64,000 bases of DNA from an uncultured Phycisphaerales bacterium. Lineage in GTDB: Bacteria > Planctomycetota > Phycisphaerae > Tepidisphaerales > Tepidisphaeraceae. The stretch spans positions 32,001-96,000 of the forward strand of contig CAVWLP010000003.1 in the NCBI GenBank assembly GCA_963755915.1, in the 5' to 3' direction. The position numbers and the translations under genes are program-made. Shown piece after piece: positions 17,588 to 56,552 of this stretch. Under the pieces are notes generated by a model, which searched no databases, was not told the DNA's origin, and saw nothing but the letters and a program-made list of their open reading frames with translations. Numbering within the stretch: position 1 is the first letter of the stretch; the number at the start of each line of letters is the position of its first letter.

Positions 17588-18457
17588 ATGTCGAAGCTCA
17601 CACAATGGCTCGACCATCGCATGGAGGTGGTGGGACTGAATCGGTGGAAGGATCTGTCAGAATACTCGGGCATTTGCCATCAAACGATCCGGGACATGAA
17701 TACCTGCGGCTCGCTGCTGGTGCTCAGCCGCTCTGACCGGCGCTCGCTGGCCGCGGCTTTGCGCGTCTCGCTGCGCAAATTGGAACAGCTTGACGCCGGG
17801 CAACTCGACTGGATCGAGGACAAGTACGTTTATGACGTTGGAGTCGTGGGACGTCCAACCCCGTCACAGGAAAGCGATCCGGCCTACTGGGTTCCAAAGG
17901 AAGCCAAGGCCGAAGATCGCGGTACGCCGCTGATCGGGAGAATTCGGGCGAGTGGCAAGGCCGAACCTGATGAGGACTGGCAAGAGGAATTGGGGAGGCA
18001 CATCCCGCAACGATTTGGAAAAGGCCACGACATTTACGGCTTGGAACTTGATGCAACCAGGCAATCGGTCGTGTTGCGGAACATCCCTTTGTGGGAATTC
18101 CGGGAAGGAATGGCCGCCGTGTACTGCTGGAATGGCTGGGAAGCCGAAGGTTGGTTTGGACGCGTTTATCTGCAAGCCACCAAGGCGCGCGTGGTGACGT
18201 CGAATGGAGAGCGACACGACTTGGACCTGGCTAGCGTTGTGCGGATAGGAAAGCTTGTTGGGCATTGGCCGCTGTCCGACTCATGGGCACGAAATTGCAC
18301 CCGCGCGGGGAAGAATAGGGGAGCCGAACCACGTACTTCTTTGATATCTTGGGCATGGCAAACCTTCCTTGGTTATGCCATTGACGTTACCCTAAATTCG
18401 AAGCGTGACAATGCACTAGTCAGGCCTTCGACCATCGGGTTCTCAACCCGGCAGTAG
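17588..18457 (+). CDS. Second HTH protein with degenerate S24-like C-terminus (3' end uncertain)
   Basis: WKDLSEYSGICHQTI HTH; PLIGRIRASG; the last ~55 codons run through the att-like region. Confidence 0.5.
   Translation: MSKLTQWLDHRMEVVGLNRWKDLSEYSGICHQTIRDMNTCGSLLVLSRSDRRSLAAALRVSLRKLEQLDAGQLDWIEDKYVYDVGVVGRPTPSQESDPAYWVPKEAKAEDRGTPLIGRIRASGKAEPDEDWQEELGRHIPQRFGKGHDIYGLELDATRQSVVLRNIPLWEFREGMAAVYCWNGWEAEGWFGRVYLQATKARVVTSNGERHDLDLASVVRIGKLVGHWPLSDSWARNCTRAGKNRGAEPRTSLISWAWQTFLGYAIDVTLNSKRDNALVRPSTIGFSTRQ
18307..18451 (+). repeat. att-like module copy 1: arm repeat plus 25-bp site X
   Basis: ggggaagaatagggga (18307) and ttcgaccatcgggttctcaacccgg (18427-18451), repeated at 44557 and 44656. 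Confidence 0.75.
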
Positions 18458-18542
18458 CGAAAGATGCTGTGATGCGCTCGCCGTCGGCGAACGATGCTTC
18501 CTCGATGAGGAAGGGATTGGCTTTTCGAAAACTCTACGTCTG

Positions 18543-19763
18543 CTACGCGATCGACCCGAGCGGACGGGCGCTGATCGGCAAAGGTTTCAGCGGTTTGTTT
18601 TGAAGGATGAGCGGCACGTCGACCACTCGCCGGAAGAGCAAGCGGAAGGTTGAACCGACTCCGACCCGCGAATCGACGGTGAGAGTGCCTCCCAATAATT
18701 TAGCTGCCTGCGATGCAATGGCGAGGCCCAGTCCCACGCCAGATTCGCCGTGAACGTCTCCTCTTTTGAATGCCTCAAAAACCGTCTCCAAGAGCGCGGG
18801 CTCAATTCCAGGCCCCTCATCCAGTACCCACAGCACCGGACCATCTGACTGAGCGTCTTTTCCGAATCCAACGCGGATATCTCCACGGCTGATGTATTTT
18901 ACGGCGTTGCCCACGAGATTTTGAAGCACCAAGGTGAGCAACTCGCCATCTGATTCGACAACCGTGCCAGGGCGCATCTCGACAATGAGCCGCGCTCCTT
19001 TGGCGTCAGCCTCGCGCGAGAATTGCCCGAGTATTTTTGTCGCCAGTGCATGTAAATCGACGGGCGACAGCGTTATCGCTTTGCCGGATTTCCGGAGTCG
19101 TTCGTGGTCCAGTAGTCGACGCATGCCCATGACCGTGTCATGGATGCATTGCTGCGCGTGGTCAAGCGACTCTTCCGCTTCTGGGAAGCCGCCTGCCCGG
19201 TTCAAATCCAATCGGAGCGCTTGCAGTGTGAGCGTTACACTATTCAGGTTGTTGTTGAGGTCGTGAGAGAGGAACGAGAGAAACTTCAACTCCGTCTCGG
19301 CAGCAACGCGAAGTTGATTCTTCTGTTGGTCCACGAGGGCAATTACGGATCGCTGGAGCATCACGTCGATAGCGGCGTGGAGTGCCGCGGATTCCATGGC
19401 TTCCATCCGCCGGTTTAGCGCCTGTTCAATGTGCAATACAGTGATGGCCCTGAGCAGCCGATCCTCCTGCATGACCTCGACCACGTCGAGGTTCAGCCTG
19501 AAACGTGAAAGGCCCTGGGACGGTGCGCGGCTTACAAGCTCTCGAATCACGTCCGGGTCATCCGACGCAAGGGCTTGAGCGATCGCGAGCAATAGCTGGG
19601 GCGTAGAATTCTTTAATTCGTCGGATGTGAGATGCTGCATCTGCGGCATCGCCGCTCGCACAGCGGCGTCCCAATCCAGCGTTATCTGGTCCGCGCCAGT
19701 GCGCAGGATTCTTGCCAACTCGGGGAATGGGCGATGCGTGAGTTGTGCCAGCAGTGGATTCAT
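18543..19763 (-). CDS. Cytoplasmic sensor histidine kinase
   Basis: LSHDLNNNL H-box, NLVGNAVKY, DEGPGI, GVGLGL; no TM segment. Confidence 0.92.
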   Translation of the reverse strand: MNPLLAQLTHRPFPELARILRTGADQITLDWDAAVRAAMPQMQHLTSDELKNSTPQLLLAIAQALASDDPDVIRELVSRAPSQGLSRFRLNLDVVEVMQEDRLLRAITVLHIEQALNRRMEAMESAALHAAIDVMLQRSVIALVDQQKNQLRVAAETELKFLSFLSHDLNNNLNSVTLTLQALRLDLNRAGGFPEAEESLDHAQQCIHDTVMGMRRLLDHERLRKSGKAITLSPVDLHALATKILGQFSREADAKGARLIVEMRPGTVVESDGELLTLVLQNLVGNAVKYISRGDIRVGFGKDAQSDGPVLWVLDEGPGIEPALLETVFEAFKRGDVHGESGVGLGLAIASQAAKLLGGTLTVDSRVGVGSTFRLLFRRVVDVPLILQNKPLKPLPISARPLGSIA

Positions 19764-19999
19764 CGTTTTGCCTCCTTGCGGGAACGCAACACACCTGCTA
19801 CAGTGGGATTTCTCGCCCAGTCGGATGGTTGGCGGCCTCGCGTGGTGCCCGGAGGGCCGGGTATCTTGTACACTGTTTAAAATGGGCCGTCTGTCCGTTA
19901 GCGGACGGTGTCAAGTAAAATCTTCTGCTACCGTCAAAATCCTTAGAGCCGGGCTATTCCATGCCGCCGACGTGTAACTACTTACTGGAGCGAAGCTAA

Positions 20000-20705
20000 G
20001 TGACGATCGCAGCCCGCACGGGCAACAAAATTTTGGACCGCCTGCCAGAGCAGGATTTTCATCGAGTTTTCTCTCAATTGGAAAAAATTGCGCCCGATGT
20101 TGGCGAGGTCGTGGCCTATCCGGACAAAGAGCCAAGCGCGTTCACTTCCCAATCTCGGGCGTGCTTTCTTCGATGGTGGTCCTTGAAGACGGGTCGATGA
20201 TCGAGGCATCCACAATCGGAAACGAGGGCATGGACGGCCTCTATCTTATGGCTGATCCACTGGCCAACCCCTACCGCATCAACGTTCAGGTACAAGGCGA
20301 CATGCTCTGTATGTCGGCGTCAGCGTTCCGGCGTGCGTTGTCCGAGAGCCACGCGCTGACGCAACTTTTGCTCAGATACGCGATGGTGCTGATCCAGCGG
20401 GTGCTCAAAATGGAGCGTGCATTCAACACCACACGATCGAGGAACGAATGTGCAGATGGTTGCTTGAAACGGCTCACCGCAAGGGGGAAGATCATTTCGG
20501 CCTAACCCAGGAATTTCTGAGCGACATGCTCGGCGTCCGCCGACAGAGCGTAAATTTGACGGCGCGCATCCTCCAACAGGTCGGCCTGATCAAATATCAC
20601 CGGGGCGAGTTGACGATTCTTGACAGGGCCGGTTTGGAAGAATCTTCCTGCGAGTGTTTTCGTGTCACCAGCCAGATGTACGAACGCATGATGAGGCTTA
20701 CGTGA
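20000..20705 (+). CDS. Crp/Fnr family regulator (two frameshifts)
   Basis: IGNEGM cNMP-fold segment, RWLL, LTQEFLSDMLGVRRQSV HTH. Confidence 0.85.
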
Positions 20706-21576: not shown

Positions 21577-21683
21577 ACAATTCGATAAATCGACATTGTC
21601 CATTGCTATTAGCCGTTGGCACGCGTACCGTGTGACGTTGCGCAGGAAGTGTTCGTGCCTGTGCGTATTTGAAATATAAAGTC

Positions 21684-21789
21684 GTCGGACGACTAAATAG
21701 ACGGCATCCCGGTCTCCGGGCGGCCGGTTGCAGAGTAAGCCGACGTGGTTCCGCACCGTAAGGGTGTTGAACCACGTCGGTTCTTTTTT
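21684..21789 (+). ncRNA. Riboswitch/attenuator-like RNA, copy 1
   Basis: tcggacgactaa...gagtaagccgacg overlapping terminator ccgacgtggttc...gaaccacgtcgg-T tract. Confidence 0.75.
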
Positions 21790-21817: not shown

Positions 21818-22225
21818 ATGCCTAATTCCACGCAAACAATGGCTGAAGAGATTGGCCAGGTCGCAGCAGCGTTTCAGCAGCAAAGAACCGGCATCGAGCC
21901 CAAATCCGTGCATGTCGTGCTTAGAGGAGACACCTTGGTGGTGACACTGCAGGGCGCACTGTCGCTGGCCGAGCAGGCTTTAGCGCGGAGTGCCGAAGGC
22001 GCGGCGGAAGTACAAGAGCTTCATCGTCAGTTGTTTCTCACGGCGTTCGACAGGCTCCGAGCGGAAATCAGGCGGATCACGGGGTTAAACGTGTGTGAAG
22101 CGGCCGAAGTCGAATCAGCGGCTGGGGCAGCAATTCAGGTTCTCGCCAGTGGAACGATGGTTCAAGTATTCCAACTTTCCGGAAAGTTGCCCCCCGGAGA
22201 TTTCAGCTCTGGGGACAAACTGTGA
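21818..22225 (+). CDS. DUF2294 (MpsC-like) protein, copy 2
   Basis: RTGIEPKSVHVVLRGDTLVVTLQGALSLAEQAL, paralogous to copy 1. Confidence 0.8.
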   Translation: MPNSTQTMAEEIGQVAAAFQQQRTGIEPKSVHVVLRGDTLVVTLQGALSLAEQALARSAEGAAEVQELHRQLFLTAFDRLRAEIRRITGLNVCEAAEVESAAGAAIQVLASGTMVQVFQLSGKLPPGDFSSGDKL

Positions 22226-22334
22226 AGCCACGGTCTCTGGAGTTGCGCTAAAAGTGCCAGTGATTGTCAATTTTAGTTTTACGGACCCAAGGCAATTTCG
22301 CTTCTGGGCCGAAGACTTTTTTAAGGAAATGGAC

Positions 22335-22874
22335 ATGTTAAGTAAGAACTCGGTTATCGCGTTATTCGATCAACACACTCAAGCCGAAAACGCAGTGAAG
22401 GAACTGCAGCAGGCGGGCTTCGACATGAAGTCGCTGTCTATCGTCGGAAAGGATTACCACACCGACGAGCACGTCGTCGGATATTACACGACCGCCGATC
22501 GCATGCAGTATTGGGGCAAAAATGGCGCATTCTGGGGCGGAATCTGGGGCCTGCTCTTTGGGTCAGCCCTCTTTGTCATCCCGGGTATCGGTCCGATTGT
22601 GGCAGCCGGGCCGGTGATCGCGTGGATCGTCGCCGCTCTCGAAGGTGCGGTCGTTGTCGGTGGCCTCAGCGCTCTTGGCGCCGGGCTCTACAGCATCGGC
22701 ATTCCGAAGAAAAGCATTTTGCAATACGAAACTTCGCTGAAGGCAGGGAAGTTTATGCTGCTGGTGCATGGAACCCCTGAGGAAATGAGTCGAGCTTCGA
22801 CGATCCTCAAAACCACCGGGGCATCGGAATGCCAAGAGCACATGGCGGATGCACCGGTTGCCGCGCTTGTTTGA
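22335..22874 (+). CDS. General stress protein/DUF1269-like membrane protein
   Basis: AENAVKELQQAGF..LSIVGKD, Gly-rich GAFWGGIWGLLFG..IPGIGP. Confidence 0.8.
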   Translation: MLSKNSVIALFDQHTQAENAVKELQQAGFDMKSLSIVGKDYHTDEHVVGYYTTADRMQYWGKNGAFWGGIWGLLFGSALFVIPGIGPIVAAGPVIAWIVAALEGAVVVGGLSALGAGLYSIGIPKKSILQYETSLKAGKFMLLVHGTPEEMSRASTILKTTGASECQEHMADAPVAALV

Positions 22875-22953
22875 TCGACGTGATTCTCACCCATGCACAT
22901 CCGGAAGCGATTCGGAGCACGATTGCCGGATCGCTTCCGCGACATTAGGAGCA

Positions 22954-23639
22954 ATGATGAATTCTCAGCTATCGGGCACACACCAGAAGGTTTACCAGCA
23001 TCTTTTCCAGCATCCGATGCCGCACAACCTCCAATGGCGAGAAGTCTGGTCAATGCTCGGTGCAATGAAGGATGCACAGGCGATCGGAGGAAGCCAAAGG
23101 CAATCTGAAAGTCGAGCGAAATGGTCAGGTCCTCACGCTGCACCGTCCGCGCGGCAAGGACTTGGCGGACAAACAGGAATTAATGAAGGTCCGCCATTTC
23201 CTGGAGCGCTCTGAATCGCCATTGCCAAAGCCCGAGCCGGGAGGCACCCACTTATTGGTTGTCATCGATCATCGCGAGGCGCGAATATACAGCGCGGAAA
23301 TACATGGATCGGTTCCGCAACGGATCAAGCCTTATGACCCTTTCGGCTTCGATCGAGATCTGCATTACAACCAGGACGATTCCAACGGCCAGCGAAAACC
23401 GGAGAAAAAGAGCTTCTACGAGGCAGTCGCCAAAACGCTGCGCGGGGCGAAGCAGATTTTAATGTTCGGCAGCGCCACCGGCGCCAGCAGCGCGATGGAA
23501 GCGCTGGTTGAGGAGTTGAAGCATAATCACCCCGATGTCGCAGAGCGGATCATCGGCACCTTTACTGTTGATGAGCATCATCTAACTGAAGATCAGTTGC
23601 TGGCTAAGGCGAGGCGCGCTTGTTTTTGCCTGCACATAA
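22954..23639 (+). CDS. Protein with HicA-like N-terminus and eRF1/host-attachment-like C-terminus (frameshifted)
   Basis: LFQHPMPHNLQWREV..LHRP; VVIDHREARIY, FYEAVAKTL, ILMFG, HLTEDQLLAKAR. Confidence 0.6.
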
Positions 23640-23677
23640 GTCTGCGATGTCTGCGGCGAATTGACATAAAGATAGTT

Positions 23678-26202
23678 ATGACCACATCAACGATGTCCAA
23701 ACCTCCTGCGTCGACGGCACGCCCCCACGAACTGGCCCGGTTGCTTCAGCAATACGGATGCGGGCCAATTCATTTCACCGGCACGGATGGATTTTACGAG
23801 AGGCACCTCGTCTTCGACACCGTGAAAGATTTGGCCACCACCAGCCCGCGTGAACACTTCGAGGCAGTCGCCCGCTCGGTTCGCGATGTTCTCTCGCAAC
23901 GCTGGGTGGCCACGGAGAAGACCTATGAGCGCGAGAATCCCAAGCGCCTTTATTATCTCTCCATGGAATTCCTCATCGGCCGTTCGCTTGGCAACAATGT
24001 CACAAATCTCCTTCTCGACCCTCTGGCAAACCAGTTCGCGGCGATGAAGAAGCTCGATTGGCTGGAACTGATCGAAAAGGAGCCCGATGCCGGCCTGGGC
24101 AACGGCGGACTGGGTCGGCTGGCCGCCTGCTTTCTGGATTCGTTGGCCACGATGCAGCTTCCGGCCATGGGTTACGGCCTGCGTTATGAGTACGGCATTT
24201 TCAGACAATCCATCAAGAACGGATGGCAGCAGGAAAGCCCGGACAATTGGCTGCGTCGCCCGGACCCATGGGAAGTCGCCCGCCTGGATCGAGCATGTCA
24301 GCGTGAACCTGAACTGTTCGTTCAAAATGACCGGACGGAAACTTGCACGCCATTCCGGGCACGCAGTCCAATCTGATCGGTATTCCCTATGACCGGCCGG
24401 TGGTCGGATACGGCGGCAAGACCATCAACACGCTCCGCCTTTGGGCCGCGGCAAGTTCCGGATTATTTTGATTTCCAGAGATTCAGCGGCGGCGATTTCG
24501 TCGGCGCGTTGGCGGAGATGCTGTCGGCGGAATCGCTGACCCGCGTCCTGTATCCCGACGATTCGACCAGCCGTGGGAAGAGCCTGCGCTTTGTGCAGGA
24601 GTATTTTCTCGTCGCCTGTTCGCTGGCCGATCTTGTCCGCCGCTTTCGCGAAACCAATTCCGATTGGACCCAGTTGCCCGAGCATGTCGCCATCCAGCTC
24701 AACGACACGCATCCCTCGCTGTCCGTCCCTGAGCTGATGCGAATTTTGCTCGATGATGCCCATCTGGGATGGGACCAAGCCTGGGACATCACGAAGCGGA
24801 CGCTGGCCTATACGAACCACACGCTTGTTGCCCGAAGCCTTGGAGAAATGGCCTGTCGAGTGGTTCGAGAAGCTGCTGCCGCGCCACCTGGAAATCATTT
24901 ACGAGATCAACCGGCGACTGCTCGATGATGTGCGTGCAGAAATTCCCAGGCGACGAGGGCCGCGTGGAGCGCATCAGCCTCGTCGAAGAGACGGACGGCC
25001 GCAACATCCGCATGGCGAACCTGGCCATCGTCGGCTCGCACAGCACCAACGGCGTGGCCGCGATTCACTCCCGCTTGCTCCGAACCACGACCGTGAAGGA
25101 TTTGGCCGACATGTTTCCGGAGCGGTTCAACAACAAGACCAACGGCGTGACGCCGCGCCGCTGGCTGCTGCTGTCGAATCCCATCGCTGGCCCGCGTGAT
25201 CACGCGAAGCGATCGGCGATGGCTGGATCACTGACCTCGATCAATTGCAGAAACTCAAGCCGCTGGCCGAATGACAAAGGCTTTCGCGACGCCTTTCTGA
25301 AGGCCAAACGCGAGGCCAAAGTGCGGTTTGCCGATTGGCTCAAGGCTAGCACCGGGCAAGCCGTCGATCCCGACACCATCTTCGATTGCCAGATCAAGCG
25401 CATCCACGAATACAAGCGGCAACTGCTCAACGCGCTGCGCATCGTCGTGCTTTACAACCGGCTGCGCGCAAATCCGGAACTCAATATGCCGCCGCGGACG
25501 TTTTTCTTCGCCGGCAAGGCCGCGCCGGCCTATCACCTGGCAAAGGTCATCATCAAGTTCATCAACAACCTGGCCGGCGTCATCGACGGCGACCCGGCTA
25601 TGCGAGGCAAGCTCAAGGTCGTTTTCCTGCCGGAATATTCTGTCACGCTGGCCGAGCGGCTGATTCCCGCCAGCGATGTCTCCAACCAGATTTCGACCGC
25701 GGGCTACGAAGCCAGCGGCACCAGCAACATGAAGTTCATGATGAACGGCGCTCTCACGCTCGGCACGCGCGATGGCGCGACCATCGAAATGGCTGAGGAA
25801 GCCGGCGAGGAAAACTTCTTCCTGTTCGGCCTGACGGCCAAGCAGGTGGCGGATAGCCGGAGCTGGTACAACCCACTACTGGCATTACGAAAACGAGCCG
25901 GAGACGCGTGCCGCGCTGGACCTGATTTTTTCCGACCATTTCAGCCGCGATGAACCCGGCATCTTCGAGCGAACTGCGCGAGACGCTCTTCTGACGGGCG
26001 GCGATCACTACATGCACCTGGCGGATCTGAAGTCCTACCTCGAGCGCGGACCAGCAGCTGGTCGAGTTGTATGCCGAGCAGGATGCCTGGGCGCGGAAGG
26101 CGATATTGAACGTGGCCGCGTCTGGGAAATTCTCCAGCGACCGAACCATCGCGCGAATATGCGTCGGAAATCTGGAACGTGAAACCATGCCCGGTGGCAT
26201 GA
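23678..26202 (+). CDS. glgP: Glycogen/starch phosphorylase (several frameshifts)
   Basis: [39 protein letters not shown]. Confidence 0.93.
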
Positions 26203-29599: not shown

Positions 29600-29699
29600 A
29601 ACCTAGAAATATTATTTTGCTGGTTCACGGTTGGGATCGCCTATACTATGACATGCAAGTTGGCTGATCCCTCTGCTCCGTGCAGAACAGCGAAAATCT

Positions 29700-42975: not shown

Positions 42976-42987
42976 AGAAATGAGATT

Positions 42988-44322: not shown

Positions 44323-44572
44323 CTTCCCCTAAACTTCCCCTTTTTTATGCAGAATGAGCTTGTCTTGCCGCTCATGCAGAGTACAATTCAACCGGTGTTA
44401 AGGCTCTGCCTACACGGGAATTAAACGTAAATTCCGGGTTCAGCTAGATTTGCTGATTTTGGGTCATTTCTGACTCATAACCATACGGTCAAATCCACGA
44501 ATCCTGATTCTCCTTTCGAAAACGAAGTTTCTCCGTCTCAAATCCAAACCCGCATAGGGGAAGAATGGGGGA
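44323..44572 (+). repeat. attP-like junction: arm, ctcataa core (44474-44480), inverted arm
   Basis: 44323-44482 is a co-linear 160-bp imperfect repeat of 56360-56519; cttcccctaaacttcccc on the left, ggggaagaatggggga on the right. Confidence 0.8.
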
Positions 44573-44655
44573 AACCTGTCGAAGCAGCTAATTGAGACAT
44601 ATCAGAACTGTCATAAGCGCCTTCAGTTACAATTGAATTGAGAGACGCGGCGATG

Positions 44656-44685
44656 TTCGACCATCGGGTTCTCAACCCGGAGGTC
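44656..44685 (+). repeat. Site X copy 2
   Basis: Exact 25-bp repeat of 18427-18451; continues aggtc as in the tRNA-Met fragment. Confidence 0.8.
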
Positions 44686-44730
44686 AACATCTTCTTTTGA
44701 AGTAAGAAAACGCCGATTGTTGAGCCGTAG

Positions 44731-46323: not shown

Positions 46324-46429
46324 GCCAACTTTCCGCTTCCATCGTCGACCGTGGATGCGCACCGTCCGCGCGACGGAGGCCCGCCTTGTAAATTTGGTGA
46401 AACACGACGATCAGACGTGATCGAGAAAC

Positions 46430-47410: not shown

Positions 47411-49889
47411 ACTGAATTGCTTCGATTAACCCGCGAACCTTACTTTCGATTTCCACCATTTCGCAGGCAGATTTCGCCCGGTTCCCCAAATCCGCTGCGA
47501 TATCAGTCAACGGCCGGAATCCGAGGCCGCCGGCTGTTCCACGTATGTCATGCAGCTCTCGGCGAAGTGCCTCAATATCTCTCTCACGCATCGCTGCTTC
47601 CAGACGCTCAACCTGCGCGGGGAGTCCCTCAACATATTCTTGAATCAACTCGTGGTACTTTGGCTCGCCTGCTAGAGTGCTGCGCAATGACTGAGAGGGA
47701 GATGACGAATTAGCGATGGCGGGCAGTGCGTTTACCAAGCGCGGTTCCGCAACACATTTGGATATCGTATTGCCAAGCTGACCGAGCGATTCCGCGATCG
47801 TCTCTAGAAGTAGTTTCCGCTCGATAGGTTTGGGCACGTAGCCGGTGCAGCCCGCCTGCAGGCATTTAGCTCGGTCGTCGCTCATTGCGTGCGCGGTCAG
47901 TGCGATGATCGGCAGGCGACAACCCCGTTTGCGCAGTTCCGACGACGCCGTATAGCCGTCCATTTCCGGCATTTGCATGTCCATCAGGATTAGATCAAAT
48001 TGCTGCCGTTGAAACAGGTCCAACGCGATTCGACCATTTTTCGCGACGGTTACGGTAGCGCCGGCTTCGCTCAACAGCAGGGTAATTAACTTTTGATTCT
48101 CCGGACCATCCTCCGCGAGAAGAATGCTGCAATTCAACGTAAACTGCTGACTGACGGCCGGTTTGGAAGACTGCACGACCAGCATCGATTCATTAAGTCC
48201 ATGCAGCATTTCGACGCCTGCAATGGGACCACCGTCGATTGTGATTCGGAAGCAACTTCCGACATTGGCCACTGATTCAACAACCAAGTCGCCCCCGAGT
48301 AGCTCTGTCAGGCGCTTACTGATGGTCAATCCCAGTCCGGTTCCTCCGAATCGGCGCGTCGTCGAATCGTCAGCTTGCGTAAACGGTTGAAACAAGCGGG
48401 CAAGTTGCTCGCGGGTGATACCAATGCCGGTGTCGATAACTTCCAATGTGACGATGCTGGATCCATCTTTTATTTCGCAGTCAACGCGCAGCCGTACTTC
48501 GCCGCGTTCGGTAAATTTGATCGCATTACCAAGCACATTCATCAGGATTTGCTTCACGCGCAATGGATCGCTGTGGATCACACGGGGAATTGTGTTGGCG
48601 AAGGTCAAATGCAAGGCTAACCCCTGGGCGATGGCGCGTGGGCGCAGCAGGGAGACCACCTCAGCGGTGACCTGGGGCAGATCCATCTCGATCCGCTCCA
48701 CGGTCATCTTGTTCGCCTCAATCTTGCTAATATCAAGAATGTCGTTGATGAGATCAAGCAGATGCCTGCCGCTCCGATGGATGATCTGCAAACCCTCGGC
48801 GTGCTCGCCAAAATTCTCCTTGCGCTCCAGCAGCCGTTCGGCATAACCCATGATGGCGGTCATGGGGGTCCGGATCTCGTGGGACATATTCGCCAGGAAT
48901 GTGGATTTGGCATGGCTGGCCGCTTCGGCGCGGTCTGCGGCTTGGACGAGCTGCATTTGCGAGGTGGCCAGGCTTTCAGCCATCTGGTTAAATGTGCCGG
49001 CCAAGTCAGTTATCTCGTCCTTGCCTTCGACGCTGATACGTGCCGCCAGATCACCGCTGCCTAGTTGGCTGGCCTTAGTTCGGACTTCGTACAGTCGCCG
49101 CCCGAGGGGTCCGGCAGTCATCAAGGCGATCATTGCAGTTAGCGCGACTGCCACTGCTCCAACGACCACAACGATGAACCATTGCACGCCCACGCTTTTA
49201 GCCGTCTCGGCGAGGGTATCGGAGATTTCGGTTCTCGCCCCTTGTTGCAGATCGAGCGCTTTGGATACCAACCGGTGATTTTCTACGTCATTGAGCCGTA
49301 TTAACTCGCTATCGACTTTTCCCTGTTGTTCTAAGCTGGCACAAATTGCGTCCCAATTTCGCTGCAACTTCGCGCGGTCAGCATCCAATTCATCAATCTG
49401 CGCTATATGCTCTCTTTCTTCTCGAACCTCATCCTGGTTATCCGCAGCTTTCAAAATTCCGTCCGACTCATCTCGTAGTCCGCCAATTGCATCAGCCAAG
49501 CTTCGGAAATCGTTGGCAATCTGGCCCTTTGCGGCCTGAACTTCGGCGGTTTGTTTGTGGTCAATTGCGTCTACGAACTCGTCGATCTTCGCATCCAGCA
49601 CCACAGCCGACTCCGCAGCCAGGCTCGTGTCTTTCACTTCGCGAAGTGTCGTGTCGATTGTCTCGCGCAAGGAGCCGGCGGTGACCGATAAGCTGTGAAT
49701 GCTAAATGCACCGACGACGGCAACGGAGATCGCTGAGCTGACGAAGCCGAGATAAAGTTTTTTTTGAATTGTCATCTTGTCAATTTCAGGACTGGTAAAA
49801 TCTCGGCGCACGATAGGCATGAATGCGCCTGAAACGTAGATCGGCACAAAACTGCGCGTATTTACGGCAGTCCAGATTAGATAAGACAA
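47349..49889 (-). CDS. Hybrid sensor kinase (TM-HAMP-HisKA-HATPase-REC-Hpt); start uncertain
   Basis: FLANMSHEIRTP, NAIKFT, GGTGLGL, MDMQMP, HDIRG. Confidence 0.93.
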   Translation of the reverse strand: MSYLIWTAVNTRSFVPIYVSGAFMPIVRRDFTSPEIDKMTIQKKLYLGFVSSAISVAVVGAFSIHSLSVTAGSLRETIDTTLREVKDTSLAAESAVVLDAKIDEFVDAIDHKQTAEVQAAKGQIANDFRSLADAIGGLRDESDGILKAADNQDEVREEREHIAQIDELDADRAKLQRNWDAICASLEQQGKVDSELIRLNDVENHRLVSKALDLQQGARTEISDTLAETAKSVGVQWFIVVVVGAVAVALTAMIALMTAGPLGRRLYEVRTKASQLGSGDLAARISVEGKDEITDLAGTFNQMAESLATSQMQLVQAADRAEAASHAKSTFLANMSHEIRTPMTAIMGYAERLLERKENFGEHAEGLQIIHRSGRHLLDLINDILDISKIEANKMTVERIEMDLPQVTAEVVSLLRPRAIAQGLALHLTFANTIPRVIHSDPLRVKQILMNVLGNAIKFTERGEVRLRVDCEIKDGSSIVTLEVIDTGIGITREQLARLFQPFTQADDSTTRRFGGTGLGLTISKRLTELLGGDLVVESVANVGSCFRITIDGGPIAGVEMLHGLNESMLVVQSSKPAVSQQFTLNCSILLAEDGPENQKLITLLLSEAGATVTVAKNGRIALDLFQRQQFDLILMDMQMPEMDGYTASSELRKRGCRLPIIALTAHAMSDDRAKCLQAGCTGYVPKPIERKLLLETIAESLGQLGNTISKCVAEPRLVNALPAIANSSSPSQSLRSTLAGEPKYHELIQEYVEGLPAQVERLEAAMRERDIEALRRELHDIRGTAGGLGFRPLTDIAADLGNRAKSACEMVEIESKVRGLIEAIQCVEGFDEQSRHAVEASDGQA

Positions 49890-50074
49890 AGTGAGTTTAT
49901 TCTTTAGTTCTGTCGAAAGAAGTTATCCCAAGCCACTTCAGGGGTGCACCTTTTCATCCGATAAAGTCGAAAGCCGGCATCCGATTTTAGCAATGGCGCG
50001 ACGGTCATGACATTCATGACGGGCCGCATTATTCCATAGTTCTGAGTCGTGACGAATCGAACTGGTGATCCGCA

Positions 50075-50640
50075 ATGACGATGAAGCAGAAAATTCTTGG
50101 CGTATTTCTTGGATCATCGATGCTAGTGGCGATGGTGGGTTGTCTGGCGGTGATAAGCCTATTTCATCTTGACAGAACATTGGTCCCCTTCAGCAATATC
50201 GAGATACCACAGATCTCTGAGGCCAACGCGATGGGAAGTGCCACGGTTGAACTCCACCGCAGTGTTGAGCAGTACGTTCGAGCCAAGCACGACCGGCGAG
50301 ATAACGATATTGTGACGCTCAGAGCACGGATTAATTCTGAATTCGATCAGATCACCCAGATAAGCAGTCAACTTCAAGACACGGTGGAATTTCAGTCTGG
50401 CCACTCGGTTTCCGGAAGTGACGATTACAAGGATGCCGAAAAGGACCAGAAGGATCTCAGAACAATCGACGATCAAGTGCAGTCGTTGCGTCGCGATTGG
50501 CGGGAGTTGGATTCACCTGCTGAAAATCAGCCGAATGCTGATCATGATCAGTTGCTCCGCACAAGAATGGATACGACGGCGTCGGGGCTCCTGGAGTCTA
50601 CGTTGGCCTTTCAACGCGGAGCCAACTCGGGAGCTGTCTC
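50075..50640 (+). pseudogene. Truncated membrane sensor (TM plus helical periplasmic domain)
   Basis: N-terminus resembles the divergent kinase (MKQKILGVF vs IQKKLYLGF); runs into IS66 tnpB. Confidence 0.6.
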
Positions 50641-50649
50641 CTTGCGGGC

Positions 50650-50947
50650 GTGCGTATCTGGCTAGCGACGGCAGCGGTGGATGGCCGCAAGGGATTCGAC
50701 ACGCTGTGTGGCATCGTGCGCCAAGCGCTGGGGCACAATCCCCTGTCCGGGGACATGTTCGTCTTTCGTAACCGCTCGGGTGCGAGGGCAAAAATTATCT
50801 TTTGGGATTCCAACGGACTGGTTCTTTACGCAAAGAGGTTAGAGAAAGGAACGTTCCGCTGGCCGGCGGCCGGCGAGTCCTCCATCGCGCTCAGCAGGCG
50901 CAGCTGATGGATCTGCTGGCCGGGCGAGAAGTGAAATCGATGGCATA
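50650..50947 (+). CDS. tnpB: IS66 accessory protein TnpB (frameshift near 3' end)
   Basis: VDGRKGFDTL, MFVFRNR, KIIFWD, KRLEKGTFRWP. Confidence 0.88.
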
Positions 50948-50996
50948 AAATTCATTGCAATATTCCGGTGGACCGCGCGTATTATGCGGCAGAGTC

Positions 50997-52607
50997 ATGG
51001 ACGACACGGCCCTCCTGGAACTTCCCGACGACCCGATCCTCCTTAAGCGCCTGATCGTCGAGCGCGACCAAACCATTGCCCAGCGCGACGAATCAATCCA
51101 GCTCCTGAACCAGGACAACCAACTCTTACGTCACCGCCTGGCGGCGCTGCTGCGAAGCAGCTACGGCCCTCGGGCCGAGCGCTTTGATCCCCGGCAACTG
51201 CTGCTCTTCGGCCTGCTGGTGCCCAGGATTGAATTTCTGTCGCCAGCGTCTCCTTCCCGATCCAAATCGCCCAACCGTTCCAAGCACGGTCGTCAGAAAC
51301 TTCCCGATCATCTGCCACGCCTGCCCATCGAGCACGACCTGGATGAATCGGAAAAGGCTTGCCCCTGCTGCGGCGAGCAGCGTCAGTGCATCGGCCAAGA
51401 GAAAAACGAACAGCTGGAGCACCTTCCATCGAACTTCGTAGTCCTGCAGCACATCCGCCATAAATACGCCTGCCAGCATTGCAATTCAGGACATTGCCAG
51501 AAGTGCGATGGCAACGCTCATATCGATCTGGCCACCAAGCCCCAGCAACCGATTGAAAAGGGAATGGCCGGTCCGGGACTCCTGGCGTACGTGGTGACCA
51601 GCAAGATGGCGGACCATCTGCCGCTGTACCGGCTGGAACAGATCTTCGCCCGACAGCAGGTGAATATCAGCCGCTCAACGCTGTGCGGCTGGATCGCGGC
51701 GGCGGCGAGGGTGGTCGAGCCGTTGTACAAGCTCATGTGCGACCGCGTCTGCCAAAGCGATGTCATGCATACGGACGACACGACCGTGCCGGTCCAGCAC
51801 GAAGGGCATTGCCGGCAGGGACGGTTGTGGACGTACTTTGGGAACGGGTGCCATCCCTATATTGTATATGACTACACACCGACGCGTTCTGGCCAGGGCC
51901 CGCTGGCGTGGCTGGGATCATGGAAAGGGTTCCTGCAGGCTGACGCCTACGCCGGCTATGACAAGCTGTTCGCGCAAGGCGATGTGACGGAGGTTGCCTG
52001 CTGGGCTCACACGAGACGCAAGTACTTCGACGCCCAGGAATCGGACATCGCCAGATCGCTCTGGATGCTGCAGATGATCCGCCGATTGTACGCGGTGGAG
52101 AAAGAAGCGGCCGACCGCGATGGGCCAACACGCCTGGTTCTACGGCAATCGCGATCGACGCTGATCCTGGAGCAAATCCGCTTGTGGCTCGTCGAGCAGC
52201 AACCACGAGTGTTGCCCCGCAGTCCCATTGCCCAAGCCATCGGCTACACGCTGAACCAATGGGCAGCGCTGATCATCTACACGACCGATCCTCGCCTGAG
52301 CATAGACAACAACGTGGCCGAACGCGCCCTGCGTCGGGTTGCAGTGGGAAGAAAAAACTGGATGTTTACCGGGCACGACGAATCGGCTCAGGGCCACGCG
52401 ATCCTGTGGTCGCTGATCGCCAGCGCTCAGCGTCACGAGATCGACGTGCAGTTTTACCTCCGTAGCGTGCTGGCCCATTTGCCGGGTCTGCCGCCTGATG
52501 AATTGCAAAACTACCTGCCCGACGTGTGGAAGCGCGACCTGATGGCCGAGCAGCAGGCGAAGCTCAACGCCCATCACGAGACTTTGGTTCGAGCCATCAT
52601 CCGGTGA
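50997..52607 (+). CDS. tnpC: IS66 transposase TnpC
   Basis: CPCCG zinc finger, HLPLYR, HTDDT, QADAY, CWAH, DNNVAER. Confidence 0.95.
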   Translation: MDDTALLELPDDPILLKRLIVERDQTIAQRDESIQLLNQDNQLLRHRLAALLRSSYGPRAERFDPRQLLLFGLLVPRIEFLSPASPSRSKSPNRSKHGRQKLPDHLPRLPIEHDLDESEKACPCCGEQRQCIGQEKNEQLEHLPSNFVVLQHIRHKYACQHCNSGHCQKCDGNAHIDLATKPQQPIEKGMAGPGLLAYVVTSKMADHLPLYRLEQIFARQQVNISRSTLCGWIAAAARVVEPLYKLMCDRVCQSDVMHTDDTTVPVQHEGHCRQGRLWTYFGNGCHPYIVYDYTPTRSGQGPLAWLGSWKGFLQADAYAGYDKLFAQGDVTEVACWAHTRRKYFDAQESDIARSLWMLQMIRRLYAVEKEAADRDGPTRLVLRQSRSTLILEQIRLWLVEQQPRVLPRSPIAQAIGYTLNQWAALIIYTTDPRLSIDNNVAERALRRVAVGRKNWMFTGHDESAQGHAILWSLIASAQRHEIDVQFYLRSVLAHLPGLPPDELQNYLPDVWKRDLMAEQQAKLNAHHETLVRAIIR

Positions 52608-52635
52608 GGATGTGGTTGTCCCAGCGTTGACTTAC

Positions 52636-54166
52636 CGAGTGCTGGGTTGGGTATGAATATCTTGAATCTCACCTCTCTGAAGCGGTGAGCGGACAACCTC
52701 CAAAGCGGACGGAATCACTTTGCCATTAGTAGAAGATGACGGATACGTAAAAGGGGTTCGAACGCTTTTTCCGTTGACTTGGGCGACAAAGATCAGCCCA
52801 TAGGCATAGTTGCTGGATTGCGTGGGATATTGCACGGCGTACGTGACATTGCTTGGACCGTTACTTCCGACAATCATTTTGACATCTGGATTAGGCTGGC
52901 CTGTGCTGTGGCCAACGCCGTCGAACTTCGCGATCGTTTCCCACGGACCAATAGACCCGGAAAAGTAGAGGGTCGCGTTGGGCGTGCCATAGAAGAGCTT
53001 TCCGAACAAAAGTTCATGAACAGTCTTGCGCTGCTGGGATTCAATTTAGTTCTCCAGAACCAGGGCGTCTTGTCCGTCGCATCTTCGAACGAGAAATACC
53101 CAAATCCCTCGCCTGCGGGCAGCCGAATCTCGCAAGCCGCAACGCATTCCGTGCCCGGTTTGAGATCATGTTCGGCAGACTGGGTTGCGGGAAACGGCGT
53201 GCTCAGGAGCGTGCCGTTCGGAAACCATCGCGGCCCTGAGTTGCTCGAAGCGAGACGAATCGAGTCCACTTTGAATTCCATACCGTTGGCCAGATGGATT
53301 GCATAGGTACCCGACCAACTCGACGTGCCGCTAGGCCGCGATGTCGGGAGGGTCAGGGGCATTCCAGTTGGCGTCGCGGGAATTGACGGCTGTAACCATT
53401 GAATGAGGAACGTCCCGGTTCCGGCGCCGGCAACGGTGACGGCGGCCAGCACCATTGCGGCGATTTTGGCGTTCGTCCAATACATGGCTTGACCCGCCTT
53501 TCGGGCGATTGCGCTCACGAGAGTTCCTTTTGCGACGGACGTGCCGGTGAAGGCGATTGTTTCGGCCAGCTTGGCCGGAGCGGCCTCCGATCCCCGAGCC
53601 GCCAACTGCGTCGCCAGCACCGCCACCGAGGGAACGGCCCCCTTGATCGCCAGGGTCGCTCTGAGCCGGGCAACGGCGCGGCTGACTCGTTTTTCCGCGG
53701 CCTTGGCGTTGATGCCTAGAGCCACGCCAACTTGCTCGAGGCTGAATCCGCGAAGGTATCGCAGAGCGACGGCGTCGCGGTCGGATGCCTTCAATTCGGC
53801 CATCGCATCGTCCAGGATCGGCGCATAGGTTTCCCACAGCGGTTCATCTGAGTCGCCGGCTCGCTCGGGCCGCATGAAAGCTGCCTGCCTTTCGTGATAT
53901 TCGCGTCGCGCGGCGAGTTTCCTGGCATCGTGCGCGGCGAAGTGAGTGGCGGTAAGAAGCCACCCCGCCAGTGGACCCTTGACACTGGCCGCCTTGCGCG
54001 ACAAGAGCAGGAAGACCACCTGGGTGACATCTTCAGCCAGATGAGAATTGCCAAACTGCCGCCGAGCCGCCGAATAGACCAGATCGATGTTTTGTCTCAC
54101 GATTTGTGCAAACGCGTCCGTTGAGGATTTTGACAGATAGGCGGATAAGAGTTGGCGGTCATCCAT
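52636..54166 (-). CDS. ECF sigma factor with TM and C-terminal extension (frameshift; cut by IS66)
   Basis: DAFAQIVRQ..LVYSAARR..AEDVTQVVF, GWL, sigma4 region with KRVSRA. Confidence 0.85.
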
Positions 54167-54233
54167 GGGACAGGTCTGCATTCATATAGTAATGGACGAA
54201 ACATCGCGAAGGCGACAGCCTATTGGGTCGCGG

Positions 54234-54315
54234 ATCGGGGTAGAGAAGGCTGGTTGATCCCGGCCTCCCCTCCCGCCGAACCGGACGGGCGGGTTTCCCG
54301 CATCCGGCTCTCCGG
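54234..54315 (-). ncRNA. Group II intron 3' remnant (domains V and VI)
   Basis: Minus strand gagagccggatgcgggaaacccgcccgtccggttcggcgggagggg...ctctaccccgat; no RT ORF. Confidence 0.85.
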
Positions 54316-54429
54316 TTGGTGATTCTCCGCTTTCGCGGATTGACAGGCCAAGTTATTGAATTCGCTGATCGCGATTTGTTGGTTTTCACAGAAAATATTG
54401 GTTGAAAGAGAACGGCAGCCCACCTTAAG

Positions 54430-55412
54430 GCATGCGGTTGGCGGAACGAATACGAACAAATCACAGCGTCCGAGCCCGGAGGAGTGGCGTCAGATTATTG
54501 ACCAGCATCGGACCAGCGGGATGACCGTGGCACGGTACTGTCGTGACCGGGGAGTCACCGAGTGCTCCTTCTACAACTGGAAAAAGAGATTGCGTGGTGC
54601 GTCGCCAACGCGACCGAAGCAATTGTCCGCACGAGCGTTCGTTCAAGTCACTCCGTCGAATCCGGCAAAGACAGATGCTATAGAGATTCTCTTGCGCGGC
54701 AGCGGTCGTTTACGGGTCGGTCCGGGATTTGACCACCAATTGCTATTGGATCTGATTCAGACGCTGGAGGCTCTGGCGTGATTGGCGTGGTGGTCGGCAA
54801 CCAGATCACGCGAGCCGGCTGCTGGGCGCACGCGCGGCGGAAGTTCGTTGATGCCGAGAAGACGCAGCCGGCCATCGCGGCGGAGGCGGTGGCGATGATC
54901 AGGCGGCTGTGCGCCGTCGAGGACCGAACCAAGGCGTTGGACATTGGGGGACGCCTGGCACTGCGCCAGCAGGAATCGGCGTCGATCTTGGCGGCGTTGA
55001 AAGACAAGCTGCACGCCTGGCGGGATCAATTGTTGCCCAAGCATCCGATGGCCCAGGCCGTGGCGTATACCCTGAACCAGTGGACGGAACTGAACGTGTT
55101 CGCCGGTGACGGGGCCGTGCCGATCGATAACAACGTGAGTGAATGCGAGATGAAGCGGATTGTGTTGAACCGGAAGAACAGTTTGTTCGTGGGCAACGAG
55201 CGAGGCGGCCAGACTGCGGCAATCCTTTCCAGCCTGACCAGCACTTGCCGCCGGCACGGCATCGATCCACAGCGATATCTCACACAACTGCTGACGAACC
55301 TGCCGGCCACGCCAATCAGTCAACTCGAGCAATGGCTGCAGGACCAATGGAAGCGGAGAAACCCGGTGCCGTCAGGGTAGGAAGCGGGATACGCGGCGGA
55401 CAGACAAGTTAC
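54430..55412 (+). mobile_element. Internally deleted IS66 (tnpA plus tnpC C-terminal fragment); left end approximate
   Basis: TnpA EWRQII..SGMTVARYC..SFYNWKKRL; fragment CWAHARRKF..DNNVSE; ends ...agttac. Confidence 0.8.
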
Positions 55413-55471
55413 GCTGCTGCACATAACCGTCGATAACTCTTGAGACGACCCCCCAACAACGGAGGCGGATA

Positions 55472-56278
55472 GTGAACACTGAACTCAATGCCTGGGGAGT
55501 TCTGCGAAAGCTGACCTGGCATCATGTGCTGATGGTGGCGGCCACGATCGTCATTGCTCGCGTGCTGATCTACCTGCTGCGACTGCTCTTGCATCGCGCT
55601 GCCGAATCGACTGCACCGCGCTTTCGTCTAACCGTTCTCCGTGTCGTGCCGATCGTACACCTGCTGATTGGAATCGCGACGATCGCCGTGATTGTGCCAA
55701 TCGTTGTCGAGCCCACTTTTGCCAACGTCGTCACCCTCATCGCCAGCGTCGGCCTGGCTTTGGCGTTCGCGCTCAAAGACTATGCCAGCAGCCTGGCCGC
55801 CGGACTCATCACCATCCTGGAACACACCTATCAATCCGGCGACTGGATCGAAGTGGACGGCGCCTACGGCGAAGTAAAATCCATCGGCGTGCGCGCCGTT
55901 CATCTTCTGACGGTGGACGACACCGAAGTGATCGTCCCACACTCGCGGCTCTGGTCGGCCAGCATCCACAACGCCAGCAGCGGCAGCCGAAGCCTCCTTT
56001 GTGTGACGGACTTCTATCTTCACCCCGATCACGACGCGACGCTCGTCCGTCAGCAACTGGAAGAGATCGCTGAATCAAGCTCCTACCGCAAGCCGGGAAC
56101 GGCCGTCACCGTGATCGTGTTGGAGAAACCGTGGGGAACGCACTATCGCGTAAAGGCGTACGTTAAAGAGAGCCGCGAGCAATTCCTCCTCATCTCGGAT
56201 GTGACGATCCGCGGCAAGCAAGCGCTTCGCCACTCCGGCATTCAATTTGCCCAGGCCACTTACGCGGAAACGGCATAA
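55472..56278 (+). CDS. MscS family mechanosensitive channel
   Basis: GLALAFALKD..SLAAG, GDWIEV..GEVKSIG. Confidence 0.88.
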   Translation: MNTELNAWGVLRKLTWHHVLMVAATIVIARVLIYLLRLLLHRAAESTAPRFRLTVLRVVPIVHLLIGIATIAVIVPIVVEPTFANVVTLIASVGLALAFALKDYASSLAAGLITILEHTYQSGDWIEVDGAYGEVKSIGVRAVHLLTVDDTEVIVPHSRLWSASIHNASSGSRSLLCVTDFYLHPDHDATLVRQQLEEIAESSSYRKPGTAVTVIVLEKPWGTHYRVKAYVKESREQFLLISDVTIRGKQALRHSGIQFAQATYAETA

Positions 56279-56359
56279 CGGCTCCGCCGTCCACACACTT
56301 TAACGTGGGATGCGGTTGACGCACCGCTCACGATAATTGGTGCTTCTGATCGTGGCGAG

Positions 56360-56519
56360 CTTCCCCTAAACTTCCCCTTTTTTGAGCCGAAAGTGCTTGT
56401 CTTGCCGCTCGTGCAGAGTACAATTCAACTGGTGTTAAGGCTCTGCCTACACGGGAATTAGACGTAAATTCTGGGTGCAGTAAGATTTGCTGTTTTTCGG
56501 GCAAATCCAACTCATAACC
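56360..56519 (+). repeat. attR-like arm plus core
   Basis: 160-bp imperfect repeat of 44323-44482 ending in ctcataacc. Confidence 0.8.
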
Positions 56520-56552
56520 CGGAGGTCGTAGGTTCGAATCCTACCCCCGCTA
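56511..56552 (+). tRNA. 3' half of initiator tRNA-Met (CAT); displaced att fragment, not a full gene
   Basis: ctCATaacccggaggtcgtaggttcgaatcctacccccgcta; no D-arm or 5' acceptor strand upstream. Confidence 0.88.

Follow-up and report, generated by a model that had tools for sequence, protein, structure and literature searches.

Stacked mobile elements, probably at an initiator tRNA-fMet attachment site, in an uncultured Phycisphaerales bacterium

Introduction

Tandem arrays of the ICESt1/ICESt3 type, which contain a chimeric attI joint, are reportedly described in the primary papers of Pavlovic (2004) and Bellanger (2011). Here we describe a locus from an uncultured Phycisphaerales bacterium in which, on our preferred reading, mobile elements have become stacked (accreted) at the attachment site of an initiator tRNA-fMet. 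The 64,000-nt stretch that was analysed, hereafter the window, is G000:C3:32001-96000, where G000 is the source assembly. In it a decayed Tn4371-like integrative and conjugative element (ICE) or integrative and mobilizable element (IME) comes first and is followed by two cargo blocks that have no recombinase of their own.

The closest described system is the accretion of cis-mobilizable elements (CIMEs) with an ICE or IME, for which we follow the definition given in the available text of PMC5704250. As set out there, a helper that has its integrase at a tRNA-type site precedes units without genes for integration or transfer; these units keep attachment (att)-type ends, the middle joint is attP-like (right arm-core-left arm), and composite arrays move between hosts; the present locus is alike in these respects. 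Unlike those arrays, its satellites carry, besides a core that we call Y, a further core-like site, X, which shares its arms but has a different spacer; one satellite is seen opened at either site; and the satellites have a degenerate tRNA 3′ half and could not restore the tRNA. The locus is known here from sequence alone.

Elements of the Tn4371 family are laid out with an RlxS relaxase, an IncP-type TraG and Trb mating-pore genes. Like these ICEs, the backbone in the window has a tyrosine integrase at one end, an RlxS-like relaxase, an IncP-type TraG, TrbB and ParB, but trbC-trbI and a VirB4-type ATPase gene are missing (window 1-18.3 kb) and the target is tRNA-fMet. Composite arrays of staphylococcal chromosome cassettes (SCC) are tandem cassettes at a conserved gene 3′ end with core repeats at their bounds, and some pseudo-SCC units are without a recombinase and reliant on a neighbour's enzyme. 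However, SCC use serine recombinases (Ccr) and a single kind of core, and are not known to have arm-type sites or a second-spacer core. As with the attI and attC sites of integrons, one tyrosine recombinase would here serve promoterless or recombinase-less cargo through two kinds of site, allowing reordering. The units here, in contrast, are multi-gene blocks of 12-26 kb and their sites are tRNA anticodon-arm look-alikes with lambda-style arm sites; the integrase_gron model scores 19.3 bits against a cut-off of 265, and the window repeat search gave no attC-like repeats. Engineered heterospecific lox and FRT sites also combine identical recombinase-binding arms with different spacers, each site pairing only with its like, and the unit between two sites can be swapped; those are man-made, whereas the sites here are natural and their spacer specificity is presumed. 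Lastly, the tandem ssrA islands of Dehalococcoides are, in the available text of PMC3146451, cargo islands inserted site-specifically at the 3′ end of a small-RNA gene, with conserved ends and variable cargo; there the target gene and the phylum are others.

Materials and Methods

G000 comprises 6.6 Mb in 3 contigs, with the array on a 1.5-Mb replicon, and is rated 81% complete with 8% contamination. All compared genomes are metagenome-assembled genomes (MAGs), and the relatives with the same structure are MAGs of uncultured Phycisphaerales. Site X was searched for in one genome per species and in a metagenome scan, and the right-end repeat, which we call the B-end, in 121 genomes including G000. 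Public reads comprised 9 listed runs, 4 of which held 0.33-0.46 of the sampled words; the stretch covered was 42500-58000. Coordinates without a contig name are those of the window.

Results

Shared right ends and a tRNA-fMet core

The integrase gene at the start of the array and the joints of the two blocks are as follows.

1-119 (+): 3′-terminal part of intA, a tyrosine integrase gene that occupies C3:30986-32119 and begins 1,014 nt to the left of the window
18278-18322 (+): left joint of block 1, with core Y relic GACTCAT, ACCCGC and the inverted arm heptamer pair GGGGAAGAATAGGGGA (18307-18322)
18323-18419 (-): remnant of an IS630-family element end, terminal repeat and first ~12 codons (MPKISKKYVVRL)
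18427-18451 (+): site X copy 1, TTCGACCA-TCGGG-TTCTCAA-CCCGG
44323-44473 (+): B-end copy 1, arm pair 44323-44340, promoter-like TTGTCT-16-TACAAT 44360-44387
44474-44515 (+): core Y copy 1, CTCATAA and a degenerate tRNA-fMet 3′ half
44516-44655 (+): left module of block 2, inverted arm heptamer pair GGGGAAGAATGGGGGA at 44557-44572
44656-44685 (+): site X copy 2, tRNA-like sequence continuing through AGGTC
56360-56510 (+): B-end copy 2, arm pair 56360-56377, promoter-like site 56397-56424
56511-56589 (+): core Y copy 2, tRNA-fMet 3′ half 56511-56552 and terminator-like hairpin 56553-56589

The motifs quoted in a first-pass annotation of this DNA lie exactly where it had placed them, and the repeats go far beyond chance. 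Both blocks close with a 151-nt repeat, the B-end (44323-44473 vs 56360-56510, 132/151 identical), which runs into CTCATAA. It is P-arm-like and opens with two CTTCCCC heptamers 11 nt apart, followed by a promoter-like site and core Y. The arm 18-mer CTTCCCCTAAACTTCCCC stands at 44323 and 56360, two matches being reached in 0/100 shuffles. The genome holds four exact copies, the other two at C3:30888 and C2:27325, and each adjoins a tRNA-fMet 3′ piece or the integrase, the copy at C2:27325 being a relic of the same kind. That at C3:30888 lies 72 nt past a tRNA-fMet 3′ half and 80 nt ahead of the integrase ATG, and an inverted copy (17/18) lies within the integrase gene at C3:31304. The degenerate form of Y copy 1 is conserved in relatives G001 and G041 and in metagenome contig L054, and the tRNA-fMet 3′ half of Y copy 2 has two changes compared with the intact tRNA of relatives. 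We also observed that the promoter-like sequence TTGTCT-16-TACAAT is directed towards Y in both B-ends.

The tRNA-Met pieces noted in the first pass are of tRNA-fMet origin, as 3′ halves only, and neither ARAGORN nor Rfam found a tRNA in the window. G000 has six full tRNA-fMet 3′ halves (C3:25487, C3:30774, 56511 in the window, C3:516058 on the minus strand, C2:6928 and C2:574776) and the degenerate one at 44474. No intact tRNA-fMet and no 5′ half were found in the whole G000 assembly (81% complete), though the gene is intact in relatives; either the assembly has a gap here or the puzzle is a real one. An intact or intron-split tRNA at the 3′ halves was considered and rejected: ARAGORN gave none, with or without introns, the genome search gave no Rfam tRNA match there, and Rfam at E-values up to 1 returned no tRNA, tmRNA or group I intron at five loci. 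A call of 'tRNA-Phe(aaa)' at C3:30734 is a false one on a 3′ half.

Three relatives (G006, G001 and G017; 3/12 loci by ARAGORN) carry an intact tRNA-Met(CAT), which shows the initiator hallmarks C1 and three G-C pairs adjoining the loop. In G006 and G001 the same arm motif and a near-identical integrase start stand beside it. Therefore Y is read as the anticodon-loop crossover of a tRNA-fMet site. Upstream in G000, where the first-pass annotation suggested inspecting for an intact tRNA-Met and attL, a 3′ half, the arm motif and the integrase are found, and it is in relatives that the tRNA is intact.

That integrase, IntA, has 377 aa (Pfam Phage_integrase, E 4e-14). Its gene is preceded by a tRNA-fMet 3′ half (C3:30774-30815), 1.2 kb left of the window and 170 nt from the intA open reading frame (ORF), then by a T-run terminator hairpin and the arm motif at C3:30888. 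The first-pass description of the cassettes as "integrase-less" is right for the blocks, which carry no integrase by Pfam. It does not extend to the locus: a 377-aa tyrosine integrase gene ending at window base 119 stands at the start of the array, and the locus is therefore not integrase-less.

Site X resembles the tRNA-fMet anticodon arm

The 25-mer TTCGACCATCGGGTTCTCAACCCGG of site X occurs exactly at 18427 and 44656. There is no other match in the window at ≤3 mismatches, 0/100 shuffles matched, and no third copy exists within 5 substitutions in the 6.6-Mb genome. X matches tRNA-fMet at 19/22 in G000 (positions 27-48) and at 22/25 in G001 (positions 27-52), for which the probability by chance is ~5e-7 (a binomial estimate that allows for placements). 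Set against the tRNA, TCGGG-CTCATAA-CCCGGAGGTC, X reads TCGGG-TTCTCAA-CCCGG(AGGTC); the stems are the same and three of the differences fall in the 7-nt loop. X thus copies an anticodon arm with a different 7-nt loop, as had been proposed, and it stems from the anticodon arm and variable loop of tRNA-fMet. The tRNA attB (TCGGG-CTCATAA-CCCGG) and X share their putative recombinase-binding arms and differ in the spacer. The pattern CGGG-N6-8-CCCGGAGGT has only two occurrences genome-wide, both within the array. Host tRNA-Glu(CTC), which the first-pass annotation had named as the origin that, if X were also used by an unrelated integrase, would tell against its model, was ruled out, its arm being CTGG-TTCTCAG-CCAG; X is presumably also unlike the XerD arm, which is conserved. 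Past the 25 nt, the two copies of X have flanks with nothing in common and therefore offer scant homology for RecA-type exchange.

The left ends are partly shared

The left motifs GGGGAAGAAT(A/G)GGGGA at 18307 and 44557 are the two arm-motif heptamers inverted (GGGGAAG-N4-GGGGAAG, 11-nt phasing), and the layout of heptamers at the block ends is one that we take to be that of lambda-type arm sites. Of the shared left ends that had been described, the heptamer motif and X are indeed common to both blocks, but the spacers are no more alike than shuffles (score 7, reached by 221/300). Moreover, the block 1 spacer is a remnant of an IS630-family element, one that is multi-copy at contig ends in G015 and G023, and the similar spacing of 100-120 bp is therefore coincidental. 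The left end of block 1 is a patchwork of relic core, arm motif, IS630 remnant and X. Its start at 18278 (GACTCAT) proved a true boundary: homology of the backbone to the G001 element stops at ~18261, at a gene end, and the G001 ORF stops 18 nt later, so that the tail of the listed ORF, to 18457, is read-through.

Compared with CIMEs, both cargo blocks are free of integration and transfer genes. As candidate att ends, both have a B-end and Y on the right; on the left, block 2 has a Y with a degenerate arm and inverted heptamers, and block 1 has only the 7-nt relic GACTCAT, heptamers and X.

The same joint borders different cargo in other genomes

G001 keeps the B-end-Y-left module-X joint of 44323-44685 (B-end 125/151, Y-to-X 166/208), which occurs also in G041 and in L054 (84%); G011 keeps it from Y rightwards only (71%). 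Six X copies from five sources could be compared. The 1,150 nt to the right of X are unrelated in 14/15 pairs, i.e. there are five unrelated right flanks, and similarity stops at X in every source, the tRNA-like sequence ending +0, +4, +5, +6 or +8 nt past CCCGG. This bears out the expectation of conserved ends around variable cargo in other genomes. The backbone of G001 leads into only 4 kb of other cargo (RecD-like helicase) and from there into the same joint, and cargo 1 is therefore a variable insert. After the joint G001 has a different signalling cargo, then a B-end that an insertion sequence interrupts, and a tRNA 3′ half. That cargo and cargo 2 of G000 were considered as orthologues and rejected, there being no DNA similarity and the hybrid kinases being 38% identical.

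In G041 the Y-to-X segment is 207/207 identical to 44474-44680, and to the right of X stands cargo 1, at 99.6% identity over 4.5 kb starting exactly at the 25-mer and continuing at 96.7% over 11.2 kb to the contig end (G041:C8:942826-958514). On the left side of Y, identity in the B-end drops to 132/151, and the preceding 8.5 kb are without any G000 match. Because the identity is limited to Y, X and cargo 1 and the B-end has diverged, the breakpoints are placed at Y and inside the 25-nt X. The coordinates in G041 are the same as in G139, which is labelled as another genus, and the presence of the island in a different genus means that it moved horizontally. The integrase regions of G000 and G041 are 95% identical, and the island is more similar than the integrase region. 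We take these comparisons to show that the island moved recently, and separately from its neighbours, with those breakpoints.

The B-end with a tRNA-fMet 3′ half is found in six other published genomes of the family, with partial copies in two more, and G139/G041 have a B-end with the degenerate core. An unpublished genome that also carries one is left out of account. In G006 related cargo genes are joined to the integrase module at a different point (21947) and the ackA region is without a B-end, which shows other rearrangements and is uninformative on X. By eye, G006:C1:958900-961256 (locus L032 4900-7256) holds the integrase-RES-Xre module and then a TrbC/VirB2-like small gene that is fused after ~100 codons to DNA 91% identical to 21947-23735, a different junction of backbone with DNA like cargo 1.

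A pre-insertion joint (the left end of block 1, then cargo 2) was not found in 40 relatives, and the one contig that carried X in the metagenome scan has another sequence at its flank. Among the read contigs listed over the covered stretch there was no Y-Y joint and no loose end at X, at a depth that is uninformative either way; read contigs match 44035-44450, 44218-44452 and 44513-44663 without difference.

Backbone and cargo

The features of the Tn4371-like backbone, beyond intA, are as follows.

168-1243 (+): gene pair for a RES-domain toxin and an Xre-type helix-turn-helix (HTH) protein, adjoining the integrase
2470-12343 (-): transfer and maintenance backbone, Tn4371-like (Pfam and NCBIfam)
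2470-3384 (-): TrbB-like ATPase (NCBIfam 289 bits)
4336-5958 (-): IncP-type TraG coupling protein (NCBIfam 516 bits)
5962-7767 (-): RlxS-type relaxase (NCBIfam 359 bits)
8692-10680 (-): ParB-like protein
10739-11170 (-): single-stranded DNA-binding protein (SSB)
11282-12343 (-): DUF932 protein
16687-18285 (+): HTH-S24 repressor-like gene (16687-17565) and last backbone ORF

The RlxS, TraG and TrbB scores all fall under the NCBIfam curated cut-offs. Among the 17 backbone ORFs (1-18.3 kb) there is no further Trb/VirB mating-pair-formation gene, trbC-trbI and a VirB4-type ATPase included. Since the mating-pore genes are missing apart from TrbB, the backbone is read as a decayed ICE, effectively an IME, and would not be a self-transmissible ICE.

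The cargo blocks and the block that follows them are listed next.

18452-44322 (no strand given): cargo 1, carbohydrate and energy-reserve genes
44686-56359 (no strand given): cargo 2, porin, two-component signalling, IS66 copies and a group II intron remnant
50955-52607: IS66 in cargo 2
54234-54312 (-): group II intron 3′ remnant in cargo 2 (Rfam RF00029, domain V-VI, 53 bits)
54778-55380: IS66 fragment in cargo 2
56590-60754 (+): further block with second phosphoketolase and acetate kinase genes, closing with a 'C-type' end

Cargo 1 holds genes for a histidine kinase, RpiB, MpsC, YflT, glycogen phosphorylase, phosphoglucomutase, a debranching enzyme, a Band 7 protein, glucoamylase, a sugar transporter, phosphoketolase, an aldolase, a P-type ATPase, PPK2, a histidine phosphatase and acetate kinase. 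In cargo 2 they encode an OprB porin, a response regulator-GGDEF protein, a hybrid histidine kinase, a 4HB_MCP-like protein, a sigma-70-like protein and an MscS-like channel. Save for the IS66 transposases, Pfam found no recombinase, relaxase or coupling protein in the selected ORFs between 18.5 and 56.3 kb. Four genes of cargo 1 are split into 2-3 ORFs: glycogen phosphorylase (23072-25953), phosphoglucomutase (26219-27880), the P-type ATPase (38912-41428) and acetate kinase (42988-44231). These are either pseudogenes or long-read MAG indel errors, and the low completeness of few-contig relatives points to the latter. An intergenic element of ~75 nt occurs three times in cargo 1 (21679-21750, 29694-29773 and 35028-35106), ahead of the operons of YflT, Band 7 and phosphoketolase, with a related copy in G011, and may be a shared regulatory site.

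The group II intron remnant lies between the IS66 pieces, and no ORF for a reverse transcriptase was identified next to it. At this point public contigs accumulate and break off, with loose ends at 54277-54314, which points to a multi-copy intron end in these communities. The two phosphoketolase genes (35532-37829 in cargo 1 and 56966-59263 in the right block) are 71-80% identical in DNA, each with acetate kinase downstream.

The wider array

Left of the window are two more recombinase-less blocks, each ending in an 'A-type' end and Y (C3:25487 and C3:30774), and further copies of an 'A-type' end with Y lie at C2:6928, C2:574776 and C3:516099. Ahead of the 'A-type' ends stand a pair of repeats resembling the heptamers, CTTGCCCC-ATTT-CTTGCCCC, and a promoter-like TTGAAA-17-TACCAT. 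Spans of this end are C3:25300-25530, C3:30585-30816, C2:6812-6969 and C3:516057-516231. Its hairpin stem varies compensatingly between copies (GCAGTGG/CCACTGC vs CTCAGGG/CCCTGAG, by eye), and the unit runs into the tRNA 3′ half and terminator and is ~90% conserved in G005, G007 and G012; it could be a small transcribed RNA.

Further mimics of the tRNA-fMet anticodon arm were seen at C3:25311-25331, C3:25581-25605 and C3:30583-30610. They keep TCGTCGGGC and CCCGGAG(GTCGG) around scrambled loops (AGTTAC, ACCAC), and two of them (C3:25311 and C3:25581) flank a rhamnosidase/GH62 block. To the right of cargo 2, the final 9 bases of the tRNA recur, together with a terminator, on either side of the second phosphoketolase-acetate kinase pair (56909-60503), the copy at 60709-60754 being 85% identical to 56544-56589. 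A third kind of element end, at 60650-60708, is common to a relic on contig C2 (C2:27150-27344, with the end at C2:27150-27250) and suggests another type of integrase that would cross over at the very 3′ end of a tRNA. Apart from the array, ~27 tRNA genes lie within 3 kb at C2:3699152-3702079 on the main contig.

Discussion

The data support the stacking and the exchange of blocks at this locus, which reads throughout as a classical tandem accretion array; the first-pass annotation had offered accretion merely as one option. We think it fairly probable that a decayed ICE/IME is accompanied here by CIME-like satellites, without recombinases, that are exchanged via Y and the second core-like site X. 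That the integrase is the catalyst at Y and X is our proposal, as are the direction in which events ran and the part assigned to the heptamers. The N-terminal part of the helper integrase would bind the heptamers and its core-binding part the stem arms, with strand exchange within the 7-nt spacer, so that each site would pair with its own kind alone, Y with Y and X with X. Y-Y events would stack islands behind the resident element or release circles, and X-X events would admit a circle inside another island, permuting the order and partners of the cargo. The order X-cargo 1-B-end-Y-left module-X (18427-44680) would then be a circular permutation of the 26.2-kb island that is opened at Y in G041. 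A circle released by Y-Y would have entered an older joint, block 1 left joint-X-cargo 2, via X-X, and this entry would have duplicated the 25-mer and given the X spacing of 26,229 bp (18427-44655). The reverse order, X-X release and Y-Y entry in G041, fits equally, and both kinds of site would be used either way. Satellite entry into an intact tRNA-fMet would be expected to break the tRNA, because the satellites' own 3′ half is degenerate; this degeneracy fits a location behind another element's B-end.

The strongest competitor, which we consider unlikely but take seriously, is that X plays no active part and is what an old attL or a duplicated tRNA piece left in an ordinary accretion array, a pseudo-anticodon arm in decay, and that the exchanges arose by homologous, microhomology-mediated or illegitimate recombination or by gene conversion. 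Decayed units and chimeric joints are the rule in tandem arrays of tRNA-integrating elements, according to the available text of PMC5704250. The tRNA-like end right of X varies by 0-8 nt among sources, the IS630 remnant and the IS256-like and IS66 copies beside or near the joints offer other routes of rearrangement, and no junction reads were found. However, the stems of X are perfectly kept, with three of its differences from the tRNA in the 7-nt loop, and in G011 the 25-mer is better conserved than its surroundings (28/31 at X, 71% overall). A passive relic also sits poorly with six copies and five unrelated right flanks whose boundaries all fall within 8 nt, with the 25 nt shared by the two G000 copies, a very poor RecA substrate, and with a second scrambled-loop mimic (C3:25581-25605) at another block boundary of the array.

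Alternatively, the left modules and X might be what is left of a decayed integrase gene, a CIME having formed by deletion: the heptamers would be a copy from intA, X would be codons for HDIRFLNPEQ and its boundary an inherited deletion end. Indeed, intA holds GGGGAAGTTCAGGGGAAG, 17/18 to the inverted arm, and 273 nt further on CGGTTTCTCAACCCTGAG, in the order and orientation of the left modules, and X can be aligned in frame with intA, ungapped, at 21/30 (FDHRVLNPEV vs HDIRFLNPEQ). We hold this to be very improbable. Beyond the two motifs, which do stand in intA order, there is no similarity, the scores of the left modules against intA being reached by 286/300 and 142/300 shuffles; a 21/30 match over ~4.5e5 placements is expected ~0.1 times by chance (binomial estimate), and X agrees far better with the tRNA (22/25). 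Nor can an inherited deletion end explain five unrelated sequences right of X or the recent swap between G000 and G041. We give still less credence to the joints being chimeras that arose at short repeats during metagenome assembly or binning. The sources are MAGs throughout, G000 itself is incomplete and partly contaminated, and many cargo genes are split, but independent assemblies of G000, G001, G041 and G011 and of an unrelated metagenome contig contain the same joint. Moreover, G000 is in 3 contigs, a 25-nt repeat should be too short to mislead a long-read assembly, and short contigs from the public runs match the three stretches between 44035 and 44663 without difference.

Several observations weigh against an exchange of satellites through Y and X. 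Outside G000, X was found only in three species representatives (G001, G041 and G011) and one metagenome contig (L054), and the varying end of the tRNA-like sequence past X fits different incoming partners and, equally, repeated relic damage. The right arm of Y copy 1 is degenerate (CCATA, not CCCGG), and an N-terminal arm-binding domain of IntA has only a sub-threshold Pfam match (Arm-DNA-bind_5, E 0.14). The right end of cargo 1 in G041 is unassembled; because the contig ends within cargo 1, the circular permutation is inferred from one side only. The split ORFs in MAGs suggest sequencing errors. An exchange limited to 25 bases could be rare homologous or microhomology recombination or gene conversion. 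No circle, empty-site or deletion junction was seen in the public reads, which gave short contigs at a depth of 2-5, so that any present-day activity is hypothetical. Of the X-X and Y-Y recombination envisaged in the first-pass annotation, what stands is that one cargo is joined at Y in G041 and at X in G000, and circle or deletion junctions did not turn up in reads of uninformative depth. Its further suggestion, that an integrase acts at X, is a hypothesis that stands beside homologous or other recombination.

We put forward tentatively, as possible rather than probable, that one tyrosine integrase serves a set of natural heterospecific mimics of the tRNA-fMet arm (Y, X, C3:25311 and C3:25581), with stems kept and 7-nt spacers that differ, permitting cargo to be stacked, nested, permuted and swapped. 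In the literature searched, as far as its available text extends, we found no description of recombinase-less islands that hold two core-like sites with common arms and unlike spacers and of which one is seen opened at either site, and nothing comparable for integrative elements of Phycisphaerales.

Tandem accretion accounts for the growth of islands but leaves each unit with only one kind of joint. The second core-like joint in the G000 and G041 islands hints at a natural shuffling of gene blocks. If the proposal is true, a second, spacer-specific joint would explain how whole metabolic or signalling modules that have no recombinase of their own are re-sorted between mobile elements, why cargo boundaries are sharp and how blocks pass from one genus to another. 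Nature would then have its own version of recombinase-mediated cassette exchange, acting on multi-gene blocks of 5-26 kb across genera. The locus would also give a first anatomy of the integrative elements of Phycisphaerales (Planctomycetota).

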